The notes beneath the pieces are model-generated. The model did not search any database, had not been told where the DNA came from, and saw only the letters and a program-made list of their open reading frames with translations. From positions 1 through 11,539 of the forward strand of contig JAWXBZ010000009.1 in assembly GCA_034440375.1 (NCBI GenBank): 11,539 nucleotides of DNA, read 5' to 3'. The stretch comes from Candidatus Eiseniibacteriota bacterium. GTDB taxonomy: Bacteria; Eisenbacteria; RBG-16-71-46; JABDJR01; JAWXBZ01. Shown piece after piece: positions 3,898-11,362 of this stretch; the stretch's first letter is position 1, and the number at the start of each line of letters is the position of its first letter. A program made the position numbers and the translations under genes.

Positions 3898-4469
3898 TCT
3901 TCGTCCTCGATAACTATGATTCGTTCACGTACAACCTGGTGCAGTACCTGGCCGAACTGGGGGCCGAGGTCCAGGTGGCCCGCAACAACGAGGTCACCCC
4001 GGCGGACATCCTGGCGCGCCGACCCGACGGAATCCTGATTTCACCTGGACCGGGTACCCCGGCGGAAGCCGGCATCAGCAAGGAATTGATCCTGGCGGCG
4101 GCCGGCCGGGTGCCGCTCCTCGGCGTTTGCCTCGGTCACCAGGCACTTGCCGAAGTGTACGGCGGGCGGGTCGTCCGCGCGGCGCGGTTGATGCATGGCA
4201 AGACCTCGCCGATCCATCATGACGGACAGGACCTCTTCCGTGGGCTGCCCGATCCCTTCACGGCCACCCGATATCACTCGCTGATCGTGGCACCGGAGGA
4301 TCTGCCGGCTGTCCTCGAGGTGACTGCCTGGACAGCCGAAAAGGAGATCATGGGACTTAGGCACCGGGAACATCGACTGTGGGGCGTACAGTTTCATCCC
4401 GAATCAATCCTCACCGGCTCCGGCAAGGCGCTGATCCGAAATTTCCTCGAGGCGGCGGGAGGCGCCTGA
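3894..4469 (+). CDS. trpG: Anthranilate/aminodeoxychorismate synthase component II (class I glutamine amidotransferase, TrpG/PabA)
   Basis: N-terminal [20 protein letters not shown], nucleophile GVCLGHQ, MHGKTS, RYHSL and QFHPES (Cys-His-Glu triad). ATGA overlap with the recN stop. trpG is preferred over pabA because trpD follows. Confidence 0.93.
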
Positions 4470-4473
4470 TTCC

Positions 4474-5505
4474 ATGCTGAAGCCGTTTCTCCGCCAGATC
4501 GTGAATCGCCAACACCTGAGCCGGGCCGAAGCGGAAGAAGCCATGAGCCTCATCATGGAAGGGGCGGCCACGCCCGCGCAGATCGCCGCGTTCGTGGTCG
4601 GCCTGCGGCTGAAGGGAGAAACAGTCGACGAGGTGGCCGGCTGCGCCCTGGCCATGCGAGCCCGTGCCAGCCGCCTCGATACCGGCAACCGGGACGTTCT
4701 CGACACCTGCGGCACCGGTGGTGACGGGGCCAACACGTTCAACATATCCACCGCAGCCGCCTTCGTGGCGGCCGCCGGCGGCGCCCTCGTGGCCAAGCAC
4801 GGCAACCGGGCCGTCTCCAGTCAGTGTGGCTCGGCCGACGTGATGGAGGCCCTGGGCATCACGCTGTCGCTCGATCCGGGCGGCCTCGCTCATTGCCTCG
4901 AAAGGGCCGGTATCGCCTTTCTTTTCGCCCCCAATCACCATGCCGCCATGCGCCATGCGGCCGGACCTCGTCGCGAAATCGCCGTCCGGACCGTCTTCAA
5001 CATTCTCGGGCCGCTGTCGAACCCGGCGGAAGCCCGGCGCCAGCTCCTTGGCGTCTACGCGCCGGAACTCGTTCCTCTGATGGCCGACGTGCTGCGGGAG
5101 CTGGGGACCCAACGTGCCTGGGTCGTTCATGGACACGATGGCCTGGACGAGGTTTCGATCTCCGGGCCGACGCGCGTCGCGGAACTGAACGACGGGGTGG
5201 TGACGACCTTCGACGTGACGCCGGAATCGGCCGGCCTGACCCGGCATCCCATCGAAGCCATCGCGGGACGGACGGCCGGGGAGAATGCGGCGCTTCTTCT
5301 CCACATCTTCGAGGGTCGGGAGCGGGGAGCGCCACGCGATGTGGTTCTCCTCAACGCGGGTGCGGCCCTCGTGGCGGCGGGGCTGGCCGGGACTCTGGCG
5401 GAGGGTGCCCGGCAGGCGGCGGAGGCCGTCGATTCCGGGGCGGCGTTGGAGCGGGTTCAAAGGTTGGTCACAGCCTCCGGGGAACGAGCCAGGAAAGACG
5501 ACTGA
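4474..5505 (+). CDS. trpD: Anthranilate phosphoribosyltransferase
   Basis: DTCGTGGDGANTFNIST, KHGNRAVSSQCGSAD, FAPNHH, RTVFNILGPLSNP and GHDGLDE. GGAGG at 4458-4462 upstream. Confidence 0.97.
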   Translation: MLKPFLRQIVNRQHLSRAEAEEAMSLIMEGAATPAQIAAFVVGLRLKGETVDEVAGCALAMRARASRLDTGNRDVLDTCGTGGDGANTFNISTAAAFVAAAGGALVAKHGNRAVSSQCGSADVMEALGITLSLDPGGLAHCLERAGIAFLFAPNHHAAMRHAAGPRREIAVRTVFNILGPLSNPAEARRQLLGVYAPELVPLMADVLRELGTQRAWVVHGHDGLDEVSISGPTRVAELNDGVVTTFDVTPESAGLTRHPIEAIAGRTAGENAALLLHIFEGRERGAPRDVVLLNAGAALVAAGLAGTLAEGARQAAEAVDSGAALERVQRLVTASGERARKDD

Positions 5506-7159: not shown

Positions 7160-7188
7160 TTGAAAATTCCTGGCCGGCATGGCACATT
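7160..7188 (+). promoter_or_regulatory. sigma70-type promoter for tRNA-Arg
   Basis: TTGAAA (7160-7165), 17-bp spacer, then TG-n-CACATT (TG 7180-7181, hexamer 7183-7188) followed by a GC-rich discriminator-like stretch, 35 nt upstream of the tRNA. Confidence 0.6.
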
Positions 7189-7223
7189 CGGCAGCCGATC
7201 CGGGCCCTCCGGGTCGGTCCAGT

Positions 7224-7300
7224 GCGCCCGTAGCTCAGCTGGATAGAGCACCAGCCTCCGGAGCTGGGGGTCGGAGGTTCGAATCCTCTCGGGCGCACCA
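7224..7300 (+). tRNA. tRNA-Arg, anticodon CCG
   Basis: 77 nt. Acceptor stem GCGCCCG/CGGGCGC, D arm GCTC-AGCTGGATA-GAGC with the A20 arginine identity base, anticodon stem CCAGC/GCTGG with loop CT-CCG-GA (CCG at 7258-7260), T arm GGAGG-TTCGAAT-CCTCT, and encoded ACCA 3' end. Confidence 0.99.
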
Positions 7301-7328
7301 CCTTCCGACTGAACGCGGGGCCCTCCAC

Positions 7329-9095
7329 GTGCGGATACCACGATCGACCCCCAAAATGAGTGCCGCCCTTCTCGTTTTGATTCTCGGAGCCGGGGTTTTC
7401 GGGTCAACAGCCCCGGCCGGATCCGCTGGCGAATCGACCCCGGACACCGGGCGCATGCTGGCAACCATTCGGCACTTCTCCGAGGATGAAGCCGGCCAGC
7501 CGATCAGCCGGTTCGCCTATCGCATCGAGATGAATGCACTGGAAGACGACCTGCGGGCCCGCATGGCCGAGGCCATCGGCGAGCGGGGGACAGCCATGCT
7601 CTGGCCGTTTCCATCGCGCCAACCGCCGGGCCTGTGGGATCCGACATCGGCCATTTGCGGCGGTCTCGATCCGGCCTCCCCCGTGCACTCACACCCGACC
7701 CCGTGGGCGGCCGGTGGCGACATCCCCTTCCGAAGCACCTTTCAGAACGTGATCGGCCGAATTCCAGGCACGAATCCGGGCCAGGGGAAGTACGTCATCT
7801 GTTCGCATTTCGATGCCATCGGTGCCCGCACGCCCGACTGGCGCGGCTGGATCGACCCGGCTCCCGGTGCCGACGACAACCTGAGCGGAACCGCGGCCGT
7901 ACTGGAGCTGGCGCGGATTCTGTCCGCCGAACCGCCGTTGCCGTTCGACCTGGAATTTGTCTGCTTCGACGGTGAGGAACTGGGCCTGTGGGGAAGCGAC
8001 ACGCTGGCCCACGCCGATCGGGCCGCCGGCGCCCCGATACTGGGTGTCTTCAACATGGACATGATCGGCTACAACCCGCGGAGTGACTCGCTGGTGGTCA
8101 TGACGAACCGGTCTTCCTGGTACCTGGGGGACTATGTTCGCGAGACCGAGGCCCTGACCCCGCAGCCCGAACTGACCTTTCGCCTGGCCATCGACAACCT
8201 GTTGAACAGCGACCACGGGCCCTACTGGTCGGTCGGTTATCCCGGTCTCATGCTGATCGAGAGCCTGCAAATCGTCCGTCACAATCCCCAGTACCATCAG
8301 ATCATCGATCGACCAGCCACGATTTCGCGCAACGGGCAGATGATGGGGAAGGCCGCCAACATCTATCTGAAAACCCTTCGACGGCTGGCCGCGGCATCCA
8401 CCGCCGCACCCGAACTGCGCGTGAGTGAAACGGATCTCATCGTCTCGGTGAACGGCGCCATCGAGTCGCGTATTGCCACGCCCGGCGACGACATCACCAT
8501 CGAGGCGGGAATCTTCAACACCGGCGGAGATACCGAGGGAGCGCCCATTTCGGTGAGCTTCTTCCTGATCGACAATGCCGGGGCGCGCCACCTCCTGGAA
8601 TCAAGAGTGGTGACGACACCCATCCGGACCGGAGGACATCTGCGGGTGCCATTCTCGCGGGAAGCCACCGCCGCCGACATCGGCGCCATGACCATCGAGA
8701 TGGAGGTGGATGACGGTTCACGAATCAGTACGGCCCGCCGTGCCATTCCGGTGCGCGGAACGATGAGCCGGGTGGTCAGCCACTACATGGCGCCCAACCC
8801 GGTCCGGACGATCGAGCAGGCGGCGATCACCTATGAACTGTCACTGGATGCCACGGTGCGCATCACCCTGTTCGACATGCACGGCGCCGAACTTGGGAAA
8901 CAGTACTATCGCTATGAAGTCGGCACGCGGGCCACGAATACCGCCACCGGTACCGGGCAGAACCGGGTTGAGTTGCGTGAGCTGCTGGCCGGCCAATCGC
9001 CGGCGCCCGGAATCTACCTCTATCGGATCGAGGTGTTTCCCGATGGGGAAGTCGAGGGAAACGCGGTCCTCGGCAAATTCGCCATCCTGCATTGA
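7329..9095 (+). CDS. Secreted M28-family zinc metallopeptidase with CARDB/Ig-like domain and T9SS-sorting/FlgD-like C-terminal domain, about 588 aa
   Basis: Signal-peptide-like N-terminus from GTG 7329 (RIPRSTPK followed by hydrophobic AALLVLILGAGVF..APA); alternative start ATG 7356. M28 motifs: SHFD (7803-7814), PGADDNLSG, FDGEELGLWGS, NMDMIG, SDH, YH. CARDB-like PELRV...GDDITIEAGIFNTG from about 8409. C-terminal PNP...ITYEL...VRITLFD..G...PGIYLYRI. Confidence 0.88.
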   Translation: MRIPRSTPKMSAALLVLILGAGVFGSTAPAGSAGESTPDTGRMLATIRHFSEDEAGQPISRFAYRIEMNALEDDLRARMAEAIGERGTAMLWPFPSRQPPGLWDPTSAICGGLDPASPVHSHPTPWAAGGDIPFRSTFQNVIGRIPGTNPGQGKYVICSHFDAIGARTPDWRGWIDPAPGADDNLSGTAAVLELARILSAEPPLPFDLEFVCFDGEELGLWGSDTLAHADRAAGAPILGVFNMDMIGYNPRSDSLVVMTNRSSWYLGDYVRETEALTPQPELTFRLAIDNLLNSDHGPYWSVGYPGLMLIESLQIVRHNPQYHQIIDRPATISRNGQMMGKAANIYLKTLRRLAAASTAAPELRVSETDLIVSVNGAIESRIATPGDDITIEAGIFNTGGDTEGAPISVSFFLIDNAGARHLLESRVVTTPIRTGGHLRVPFSREATAADIGAMTIEMEVDDGSRISTARRAIPVRGTMSRVVSHYMAPNPVRTIEQAAITYELSLDATVRITLFDMHGAELGKQYYRYEVGTRATNTATGTGQNRVELRELLAGQSPAPGIYLYRIEVFPDGEVEGNAVLGKFAILH

Positions 9096-9401: not shown

Positions 9402-9477
9402 CCCCTCTGGACGAAACGATCGTCGGGCACCCCCCTGGATCACCCGTTCGGGCCGCGCGAACGTGACGGGAGATTAG

Positions 9478-10512
9478 TTGAAGCAGCAAGATGAACGCCG
9501 CATCCTGATCCGCACACTCCATCGGATCGCCGGGCTCATGGCCGGCGATCGTGATCTGGAGCGAATTCAGGCTGCCGTGCTGGACGGAGCCCTGGAGCTT
9601 TTTGGTGCCGAGGTGGCCCTCCTCCTGATCCGTGACGGCGTCAGTGACGTGCGTCTCGCGCGACGACGCTCACAGATCAACCAGGCCAGCTCCCTCGAGG
9701 AGGACCGACTGCCGCACTCGGAGTTCCTTTCGCGGCTCCTGGGTGTTCGCCAGCCGATCCTGGTCGGGCAGGCCGGCGGCCTTTCCGCCTCGGAGCTGAC
9801 CAGCCTCGGCTGGAGCGCGGCCGCACCGCGTAATCTGGCTGCCGTCCCGTTCCTTGGGAGAGGCAACAATGCCGGCGGGCTCGTCGTTGTGAACGGACTC
9901 CGAATGGACAGCGAGCGAAGCGAGTCGATGGATCTCCTGACCGTGCTGGCCAACCAGGCCGCGGTGGTCGGCGAAACCTTTCGACTTCACCGCCGTCTCG
10001 AACAACTCGCGATCACCGACGAGCTGACCCAGGTTTACAACTATCGTTTCCTGAAGACCGCGCTGCGCAAAGAGGTGAAGCGGGCCGGGCGGTTTGGCCA
10101 CGAGTTCTCGATCCTCATGATCGACGTGGACAACCTGAAGAAGTACAACGAGCGGAACGGCCATCTGCGCGGCTCGGAACTCCTGCGCCGGGTGGGCCGT
10201 CAGCTGCTCGACAATTCCCGCGGGGCCGACCTCGTGGCCAAGTATGGCGGGGACGAGTTCATGGTCATCCTGCCGCACACCGGGCCCGACGGCGCCGCCA
10301 TCATGGGCGAGCGGATTCGCAAGGCGGTGGCGGACGCCTCGTTCATCAACGCCGAAACGGGCGACATCACCATCTCCATCGGCATCGCCGTATTCCCGGG
10401 CCACGGACGCAGCGTGGAGGATCTCGTGGCCAGCGCGGACGATGCCCTCTTCCGCGCCAAGCGAGCCGGCCGCAACTGCGTGCAAACGGCTCTCGAACGC
10501 CTGGCCGCCTGA
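9478..10512 (+). CDS. GAF-GGDEF dinucleotide cyclase with Hypr (3',3'-cGAMP synthase-like) signature
   Basis: TTG start with SD GGGAG at 9468-9472. N-terminal GAF-like domain (DLERIQAAVLD...AVPFLGRG..AGGLVVVN...DLLTVLANQAAV), linker RLEQLAITDELT, IDVDNLKKYN, GHLRGS, I-site RGAD, KYGGDEF (GGDEF at 10246-10260), TISIG and ADDALFRAKRAGRN. Confidence 0.93.
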   Translation: MKQQDERRILIRTLHRIAGLMAGDRDLERIQAAVLDGALELFGAEVALLLIRDGVSDVRLARRRSQINQASSLEEDRLPHSEFLSRLLGVRQPILVGQAGGLSASELTSLGWSAAAPRNLAAVPFLGRGNNAGGLVVVNGLRMDSERSESMDLLTVLANQAAVVGETFRLHRRLEQLAITDELTQVYNYRFLKTALRKEVKRAGRFGHEFSILMIDVDNLKKYNERNGHLRGSELLRRVGRQLLDNSRGADLVAKYGGDEFMVILPHTGPDGAAIMGERIRKAVADASFINAETGDITISIGIAVFPGHGRSVEDLVASADDALFRAKRAGRNCVQTALERLAA

Positions 10513-10561
10513 GCCGGGGGGCCGTCTTGTCCGCCCGCCCGGCGGATGGTCTAATCTGCGC

Positions 10562-11362
10562 GTGTCCAACGACCTTCTCTGGCTGATCCTCTCCTATGTC
10601 GCGGTCGGCTTCATTATTGCCTTCGCCACCTGGGCCGGGACCGGCGGCGGCCGCTCCCCTCTAATCACCCGCAAGATCGTCCACATCGGCGTCGGCACCT
10701 GGATCATTCCCACGACGCTCTTCTTCGACAGCCCATGGATGGCCATCATCCCGCCGGCCAGCTTTGTCCTGATCAATCTTCTCTCCTATCGATTTCACCT
10801 GGTCAAGGCGATGGAGGGAGGGGATCGAAATCCGGGCACGATCTACTTTCCGCTGGCCTTCGTCATCTTGATTCTGGTGTTCTGGCCGGGAGGAATCTGG
10901 CCCGGCGGGTTGTACGGGGAGATGGGGTGGCGTTGCGGGATCTCCGTGCCGCTCGAACACAACTTCTCGGGCCGCCTGTTGCCTCTGCGGCTCCCGGCAA
11001 TGGCCGGCATTCTCGTTCTTGCTTGGGGCGATGCCGCCGCCGCCATCATCGGGCGCGCCGTGGGTCGGCATCGGTACCGCGTTTTCGGCGCCACCCGTTC
11101 ATGGGAAGGCTCATTGGCGTTCGTCGCATTCGGCGCACTGGCAATTGTCGTGTCGCGACTGATCGTTCAATCCGCAGGATTCAGCGAGGAGCCCGGCTTT
11201 CGCCTCGAAACTCCCGCCCAGCTCGGCGCCTTCTTCTCTCATGTCCTTCCATCCAGTGTCCTGCGTGTCCTGCCGGCGGCGCTCGCCGAAGCCGTGACGC
11301 CGTTCGGGCTCGACAACCTCGTGGTGCCGATCGTGGTGGCGCTGATGATGTTCTACTGCTGA
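10562..11362 (+). CDS. CTP-dependent polyprenol/lipid kinase of the SEC59/DGK1/VTE5 (dolichol/phytol kinase) family, about 266 aa
   Basis: Polytopic membrane protein with TRKIVHIG, GTIYFP, LAWGDAAAAIIGR, RSWEGSLAF and AEA...GLDNLVVP. Start placed at GTG 10562; the listed 10244 start overlaps the GGDEF gene and does not look protein-like. Confidence 0.85.
   Translation: MSNDLLWLILSYVAVGFIIAFATWAGTGGGRSPLITRKIVHIGVGTWIIPTTLFFDSPWMAIIPPASFVLINLLSYRFHLVKAMEGGDRNPGTIYFPLAFVILILVFWPGGIWPGGLYGEMGWRCGISVPLEHNFSGRLLPLRLPAMAGILVLAWGDAAAAIIGRAVGRHRYRVFGATRSWEGSLAFVAFGALAIVVSRLIVQSAGFSEEPGFRLETPAQLGAFFSHVLPSSVLRVLPAALAEAVTPFGLDNLVVPIVVALMMFYC

Follow-up and report, generated by a model that had tools for sequence, protein, structure and literature searches.

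Does a GAF-GGDEF protein of an uncultured bacterial phylum synthesize cyclic di-GMP (c-di-GMP), as the name commonly given to its relatives implies, or is it designed to join ATP and GTP into cGAMP (3',3'-cyclic GMP-AMP)? The question is raised by contig JAWXBZ010000009.1 of Candidatus Eiseniibacteriota bacterium (Eisenbacteria), whose 11,539 nucleotides are referred to here as the window and constitute the whole of contig C9 in a 3.96-Mb assembly that is 93.66% complete. An open reading frame (ORF) on the plus strand, at 9478..10512, begins with TTG and encodes a cyclase of 344 residues (P0001) composed of a GAF domain, a helix and a GGDEF domain. An initial annotation had proposed from the sequence that this GGDEF domain carries the signature of the hybrid promiscuous (Hypr) enzymes and that the protein makes cGAMP rather than being an ordinary diguanylate cyclase. 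All parts of the proposal that can be tested on sequences held, which makes the protein a candidate cGAMP synthase, and we consider it probable, with considerable reserve, that cGAMP is a substantial product. The serine, the tyrosine and the GGDEF motif that were to set it apart from an ordinary diguanylate cyclase are present, but the contrast may have been drawn too sharply because c-di-GMP is a product of Hypr enzymes like Bd0367 too.

Residues of the active site

The features that distinguish Hypr enzymes from canonical diguanylate cyclases are given here in the numbering of GacA. According to excerpts of PMC6456294, Hypr enzymes have serine at the position of GacA 348, which is occupied by aspartate in canonical enzymes, and natural enzymes with Ser or Thr at this site contain GGDE[F/Y] exclusively, as the combination of Ser with GGEEF fails to bind substrate (the 'Goldilocks' rule). 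The same excerpts describe a residue that contacts the other half of the dimer, Arg in 94% of the predicted diguanylate cyclases and Tyr in GacA. Conversion of this tyrosine to arginine (Y304R) shifts the product of GacA towards c-di-GMP; Tyr, Ser, Ala or Gln at the cross-dimer site result mainly in cGAMP, and Arg in more c-di-GMP. In excerpts of PMC9140294, the mutants Bd0367 S214D and GacA S347D are reported to turn into c-di-GMP synthases, and the Hypr type is estimated at 0.17% of the GGDEF domains.

The window cyclase combines all three determinants, as Ser233, a GGDEF rather than a GGEEF motif, and Tyr189 as a non-Arg cross-dimer residue align with their counterparts in GacA. The comparison with characterized Hypr enzymes was performed by pairwise HMMER alignments to chains of the PDB. 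The alignment with PleD is free of gaps throughout the catalytic core at an offset of 111, with residue 176 pairing with PleD 287 in the full-length chains 9g85_A and 2wb4_A (chain 1w25_A is numbered one lower), and the catalytic register is thus that of PleD, as had been claimed. The equivalences established in this way are D216=D327, K221=K332, N224=N335, S233=D344, R248/D251=R359/D362 and G257=G368. The codon coordinates of the initial annotation were all correct when checked against the sequence: the codons of Asp216 and Asn224 start at 10123 and 10147, that of Lys255 occupies 10240-10242, and GGDEF (residues 257-261) occupies 10246-10260. At the base-selecting position, GHLRGS of the cyclase lies over GHDIGD of PleD and GHLVGS of GacA (6d9m), which settles the identity of Ser233 as the D344 equivalent. 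The usual NRR is replaced by NYR, as NYRF aligns with NRRY of PleD and NYRY of GacA; the tyrosine of GacA is confirmed by this alignment and by the excerpts of PMC6456294, which also support the definition of Hypr enzymes by an Asp-to-Ser/Thr exchange together with a central Asp. An RxxD inhibitory site (I-site) is present as RGAD at residues 248-251. The catalytic set (D216, K221, N224, D259, E260 and the KxxGRN tail) is intact. The pattern of a canonical diguanylate cyclase, Asp at the guanine-reading site and Arg at the cross-dimer site, is not found, Ser233 and Tyr189 being there instead.

Among solved structures, the best match is 6d9m, a T4-lysozyme fusion of the Hypr domain of Geobacter metallireducens GacA (E 1.3e-36; PleD 1.1e-29). 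Scored with the family profile, GacA reaches 198 bits, the canonical GcbC 188 bits and PleD 155 bits, so that the lead of GacA is only about 10 bits. Chain 6zxm_A, which from its title we take to be Bd0367, matches at E 6.5e-22, much more weakly than 6d9m. GacA (GSU1658 / Gmet_1914; 6d9m, 5VS9), the founding Hypr GGDEF enzyme from Geobacter, resembles the cyclase in Ser348, Tyr304, GGDEF, Asn339 and RxxD; it has a receiver domain where the cyclase has GAF, and DLDFFK and RYGGDEF where the cyclase has DVDNLK and KYGGDEF. PleD and WspR share with the cyclase the fold, the gap-free catalytic register and the I-site, but from PleD to the cyclase Asp344 is exchanged for Ser, the cross-dimer Arg for Tyr, F331 for Leu and R366 for Lys, and the motif of PleD is GGEEF. 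F331 and R366 are among the listed substrate contacts of PleD (PMC7186502). The excerpts of PMC9140294 describe the Bdellovibrio bacteriovorus enzyme Bd0367 (DgcA) as a receiver-domain protein whose cross-dimer residue is Met, in both respects unlike the cyclase.

In its design, the cyclase resembles GacB of Myxococcus xanthus (MXAN_2643). GacB is a GAF-GGDEF protein of the Hypr type that cAMP activates through the GAF domain and c-di-GMP inhibits through the I-site (excerpts of 10.1101/600031), and the N-terminal GAF fused to a Hypr-type GGDEF domain with an RxxD I-site recurs in the window cyclase. The GAF ligand may differ from that of GacB because the genome to which the window belongs, 93.66% complete, contains no match to the class III cyclases (PF00211). 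Judged by its residues, the cyclase is probably, if not firmly, best filed as a GacB-like member of the Hypr GGDEF enzymes and as a credible candidate cGAMP synthase.

Conservation and phylogenetic position

A word-indexed search listed 120 homologues, from about 37-39% up to 100% identity, that together with the query form a set of 121. Several of those listed carry the organism name Candidatus Eisenbacteria, and where the sources name the homologues the name is 'diguanylate cyclase', which is the label that had been expected. Ser233, Leu220, Lys221, Lys255, GGDEF and the RxxD residues R248 and D251 occur in 121/121, N224 in 120, and residue 189 is a Tyr in 110 sequences and a Phe in the other 11. 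The three deviations from the usual motifs to which the initial annotation had drawn attention are real: KYGGDEF and DNLK are invariant in the family, and NE varies (D in 76, E in 41, N in 2 and A in 2 of the 121 sequences). A scan of species genomes yielded 530 relatives. The best 80 of these 530 all contain the signature, with Tyr at position 189 in 71 and Phe in 9; nearly all are from Eisenbacteria, apart from single records of Latescibacteria and Krumholzibacteriia and a few others that are labelled differently. Together with the window, the 80 loci encode Ser233 by AGC (71), AGT (6), TCC (2) and TCG (2). Since both codon families, AGY and TCN, are used, the serine has persisted through a switch between them. 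In view of this conservation and of the rarity of Hypr domains, the Hypr-like signature of the cyclase is, as far as sequences can tell, more than a product of chance.

In an exhaustive HMMER search of cluster representatives, the 150 best proteins contributed 258 GGDEF domains. The clade signature is carried by 26 of the 258 domains and is invariant in these 26 clade representatives. Among the domains of these best 150 proteins, Lys at the PleD R366 site is found only together with Leu220 and Ser233. Two other representatives with Ser, P0255 and P0221, are GAF-GGDEF proteins of the classical pattern that retain Phe and Arg. The P0255 family resembles the window clade in its GAF-GGDEF architecture, a similar linker (TDDLTKLYNSRY), Ser, GGDEF and a non-Arg cross-dimer residue (121/121); unlike the window clade, it has Phe and Arg at the F331 and R366 sites (121/121), and Ser, Gly, Cys or Ala rather than Tyr at the cross-dimer site. 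Identification of this family with the Myxococcus GacB was considered and rejected, as the family is from Acidobacteriota.

Phylogenetic trees covered GGDEF representatives other than GacA, GacB, Bd0367 and GSU1937. The window clade was recovered as monophyletic by FastTree and IQ-TREE (support 0.965; Shimodaira-Hasegawa-like approximate likelihood ratio test, SH-aLRT, 97), and the clade with the classical signature (P0255 type) was separate (SH-aLRT 100). Both Ser-type clades branch off a comb of Asp-type domains whose order the trees did not resolve. A topology with all 41 Ser-type rows in one clade was not rejected by the approximately unbiased (AU) test (p 0.64), in which the signature columns were included unmasked, and the log-likelihood of this constrained tree exceeded that of the quick free tree by 9.8 units. 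A single origin of the serine is therefore possible. By the sequences compared, the window clade is a distinct and well-supported one, in all members of which Leu takes the place of PleD F331 and Lys that of PleD R366.

Deviating copies are seen in a few genomes of the phylum. Three second copies (L166, L167 and L168, in genomes G121, G009 and G074) are paralogues that keep Leu and Ser and have Arg for Lys. Their GGDEF motifs are broken (HGEDSF, CGDDAF and NAGDGF), and they are probably inactive derivatives. The single-contig genome G054 has its Ser-type gene in two frames (L099 / L118), the first of which ends at about Pfam model position 94; the split is due either to a frameshift or to an error of assembly.

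Gene, architecture and distribution

The features of the cyclase gene are compiled in Table 1. A database gene call (P0002) lets the protein begin at Met21, which results in 324 residues. The longer form that starts at TTG is the likelier gene, since its first 20 residues (window 9478-9537) are conserved among the homologues of 344 residues and the TTG is preceded by GGGAGA. Pfam detects GAF (PF01590) at residues 26-163 (E 3.1e-5) and GGDEF at residues 178-333 (E 8.7e-43). Of the NCBIfam models, only the generic GGDEF domain model scored above the cut-off with the cyclase protein, and no named diguanylate-cyclase equivalog did so.

Table 1. Coordinates of the cyclase gene and its functional elements in the window
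Feature	Position	Strand	Basis or remark
Shine-Dalgarno-like GGGAGA	9468..9473	+	4 nt upstream of TTG; read from sequence
Cyclase gene, 344 aa	9478..10512	+	ORF, Pfam, NCBIfam, AlphaFold2 model
N-terminal GAF sensor domain, residues 1-147 in model	9478..9918	+	Pfam GAF 26-163; AlphaFold2
Long helix, residues 148-179, joins GAF to GGDEF	9919..10014	+	AlphaFold2 model
GGDEF catalytic domain, residues 178-333	10009..10476	+	Pfam, HMMER
Tyr189 (TAT), cross-dimer position of PleD R300 / GacA Y304	10042..10044	+	HMMER alignments
DVDNLKKYN: Asp216 (metal), Leu220 (PleD F331), Lys221 (K332), Asn224 (N335)	10123..10149	+	
Ser233 (TCG), base-selecting position (PleD D344, GacA S348)	10174..10176	+	HMMER alignments, conservation
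RGAD, RxxD inhibitory (I) site, Arg248/Asp251	10219..10230	+	alignment to PleD
KYGGDEF: Lys255 (PleD R366), central Asp259, general-base Glu260	10240..10260	+	

The AlphaFold2 model, for which 77 sequences of the family were used (mean predicted local distance difference test score, pLDDT, 91.7), consists of a GAF fold, in which helices and strands alternate up to residue 138, one long helix and a GGDEF fold. The helix is probably the signalling helix of a putative dimer. A Foldseek search with the full model returned sensor-helix-GGDEF enzymes as the top matches, IsPadC (5llw) and the GAF-GGDEF protein Dcsbis (4zmu), and GacA (6d9m) ranked 14th. GacA was thus placed behind canonical sensor cyclases, and Hypr and canonical enzymes are not told apart by the fold.

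The degenerate pattern K[YF]GGDEF was counted over 151 sampled Eisenbacteria genomes. Exactly one match per genome was obtained in 128 of them (about 85%) and in 100 of the 118 high-quality genomes, and the reversed control pattern gave 0 matches. Both tallies take in genome G015, an entry marked as unpublished, without which the pattern count is 127/150. A count with the family profile (142/151 genomes at E<=1e-60) had been obtained as well; it was dropped as unspecific and replaced by the pattern count. Twenty of the lower-scoring profile matches were fetched and comprised 9 members of the clade, 8 canonical Asp/Arg GAF-GGDEF proteins and 3 degenerate paralogues. The gene order recN, (trpG, trpD), M28 peptidase, cyclase is shared by 12-13 of the 80 loci, those of Latescibacteria and Krumholzibacteriia among them. 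The one-per-genome distribution and the recurring gene order indicate that the cyclase gene is old, vertically inherited and present in a single copy. The conserved synteny itself offers no lead on function.

In the window, a tRNA-Arg(CCG) at 7224-7300 (+) lies within the 5' end of the mechanically defined ORF 7179..9095, so that the start of the M28 peptidase gene has to lie downstream of the tRNA. Downstream of the cyclase, a membrane protein is encoded at 10559-11362 (+); its gene comes next after that of the cyclase at 9 of the 80 loci, and it has no Pfam match even at E 0.1. Around the cyclase gene, no promoter-like or terminator-like site was found, and an Rfam scan revealed no element other than a tRNA.

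Proposed product, candidate readers and rival explanations

The residues suggest the following mode of action. The protein would be a cytoplasmic, dimeric nucleotide cyclase of the Hypr type in which each GGDEF half-site takes one purine nucleoside triphosphate. Ser233, in place of the guanine-specific Asp, would form hydrogen bonds with adenine or guanine, the short Asp259 would hold the Mg-triphosphate at the spacing required by a Ser-type site, and Tyr189 of the partner subunit would stack on either base where canonical enzymes use an Arg that favours guanine. Because of these three features, ATP and GTP are proposed to be joined into cGAMP, with c-di-GMP and perhaps c-di-AMP as lesser products. 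A signal received by the GAF domain may pass along the long helix and set the geometry of the dimer, and c-di-GMP bound to RxxD may inhibit the cyclase, as in GacB.

Support for the use of cGAMP in the phylum comes from riboswitches. Of the 101 genomes sampled from the phylum, 18 have GEMM-I matches, namely 12/20 genomes of family f5, 5/5 of f8 and 1/38 of f3. The last unpaired base ahead of the P2 pair is A in 22 of the 23 matches and G in 1, which assigns the A20 type to 17 genomes and the G type to 1. We take the scored base to be the equivalent of Vc2 G20, an assignment based on the junction layout of Gs1761, the identity of its A14 with G20 and, in part, the Vc2 numbering. In the Gs1761 junction, J1/2 ends with A14 and J2/3 consists of A41 alone (PMC6274999), and A14 equals Vc2 G20; the change of G20 to A marks the GEMM-Ib class that senses cGAMP, some members of which are bispecific (PMC6140456). 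The matches precede genes for secreted fibronectin-III proteins (motif WTAPGDDG...Y.IRY) or for a major facilitator superfamily (MFS) transporter. They form about three orthologous sets, so the 22 A-type matches do not count as independent events. Of the 18 riboswitch-bearing genomes, 17 have the clade cyclase, and neither in these 18 nor in the window's own genome was a SMODS CD-NTase found. This context supports the use of cGAMP in the phylum and a source of the GGDEF type. Most of the GEMM-I matches (L122-L143; genomes G012-G081) read GACGC-AGA where the consensus has AAA.

The window's own genome contains four GGDEF matches, which besides the cyclase are a protein of 517 residues with GGEEF and Asn at the D344 site, a degenerate copy and a protein composed of a receiver domain and GGDDF (Rec-GGDDF). 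It further encodes one c-di-AMP synthase of the DAC type, two cNMP-binding proteins and four HD-GYP proteins, and no EAL protein was found in it. The 517-residue protein, with sub-threshold GAF matches (E 0.0015), is encoded on contig C11 at 50287-51840 (-) (L002:1381-2934:-). Its family is conserved (relatives L094, L102, L107, L110 and L147-L151), with YGYEGGN covering the PleD D344 position, a cross-dimer residue that is Arg and the motif GGEEF; the orthologue in G032 has Asp. The Asn variant is a second candidate for an altered choice of base, as it is the best GGDEF match to the family profile in G081, a genome with A20 riboswitches and no Ser-type enzyme. Rec-GGDDF, on contig C239 at 3925-4917 (+) (L004:1072-2064:+), likewise has conserved relatives (L109, L114-L117), which consist of a receiver domain and a shortened GGDEF-like domain, HVGGDDF, with Asp at the selecting site. 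A GGDDF enzyme of Geobacter, GSU1937, is reported to be active (PMC8835794).

Several observations weigh against cGAMP as the product of the window cyclase. The protein might act in the cell mainly as a diguanylate cyclase, whose Ser/Tyr site prefers GTP under cellular conditions and which feeds the PilZ and HD-GYP proteins of its genome. We regard this as a serious alternative, though a distinctly less probable one. Serine by itself is insufficient, as the D-to-S mutant of GSU3350 remained a diguanylate cyclase (excerpts of PMC6456294), and Bd0367 makes c-di-GMP also in vivo (excerpts of PMC9140294). An intact Asp-type GGDEF was not found in the window's own genome, so that the cyclase might be its source of c-di-GMP, and the genome encodes one PilZ protein. 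The Geobacter readers of the GacA product are GEMM-Ib riboswitches; neither GEMM-I nor GEMM-II had a match in the window's genome, 93.66% complete. Its four HD-GYP proteins, in which the Rxx(K/R) motif was located by alignment to PmGH (RPYK), read RPYR, RVYR, RPYR and RVYS and not RxxQ/N of the cGAMP type. Neither a cGAMP-specific reader (GEMM-Ib A20) nor a cGAMP-specific eraser was therefore found, and it is the lack of these parts together with that of an intact Asp-type cyclase that leaves room for a c-di-GMP supply by the cyclase. Nor do the riboswitches of the phylum single out the clade cyclase, because the gene is nearly universal and because G081 (one contig, 90% complete) contains two A20 riboswitches and no clade gene; its best GGDEF match to the family profile is an Asn-variant GGEEF enzyme. 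In the literature that was searched, nothing was found that links Eisenbacteria with GGDEF, cGAMP or c-di-GMP, nor any mention of KYGGDEF. Yet the clade-wide strictness of Ser, Tyr/Phe and GGDEF is hard to reconcile with guanine specificity, for which Asp and Arg are the norm elsewhere. Moreover, in each of five Eisenbacteria genomes that are closed or almost so, one clade cyclase occurs in addition to Asp-type GGDEF proteins, and HD-GYP proteins of Vibrio cholerae with the canonical motif degrade cGAMP, one of them (5z7c) being the best match of an HD-GYP protein of the window's genome.

A further reservation concerns Leu220 and Lys255, which replace two listed substrate contacts of PleD. They might confer a distinct product spectrum, such as strictly cGAMP, mainly c-di-AMP or another purine dinucleotide. 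The strict coupling of Lys at the R366 site to Leu220 and Ser233 and the retention of Phe and Arg throughout the classical-signature clade would agree with such a special role. F to L and R to K are conservative changes, however, GacA shares the residues that read the base, Asn224 and Ser233 of the cyclase, and the genome already has a DAC-type enzyme for c-di-AMP, and we consider a distinct spectrum improbable. Even less is to be said for a catalytically dead GGDEF domain whose sole function would be that of a nucleotide receptor or a scaffold. Degenerate paralogues of the clade with a broken GGDEF do exist in some genomes of the phylum, but the invariance of the metal-binding Asp, Lys221, GGDEF and the general-base Glu in all homologues, with N224 missing from only one, renders this explanation very improbable. 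A cyclase with cGAMP as a substantial product thus remains the reading that we prefer.

A more far-reaching version of this reading is rather unlikely to be correct in all its parts and is offered as a speculation. The clade defined by Tyr-Leu-Ser-Lys-Asp might be a dedicated cGAMP writer and a core trait of the Eisenbacteria, which in some families would be read by the A20-type GEMM-I riboswitches in front of the secreted fibronectin-III proteins and the MFS transporter. Leu220 and Lys255 might retune the half-site such that the enzyme becomes more selective than the promiscuous Geobacter type, and the clade would then represent a second, independent solution within the GGDEF fold.

Hypr GGDEF enzymes are rare, and those studied belong to Geobacter, Myxococcus and Bdellovibrio. 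Their active-site solution, to which two more fixed changes are added, occurs here in a single-copy gene in about 85% of the sampled genomes of an uncultured phylum. As the cyclase is small and soluble and natural candidate readers are available in the A20 riboswitches, the prediction is directly testable in E. coli. If the cyclase makes cGAMP, this dinucleotide, and not only c-di-GMP, would be a core messenger of the Eisenbacteria, and automated c-di-GMP censuses of soil metagenomes would be wrong for this phylum.

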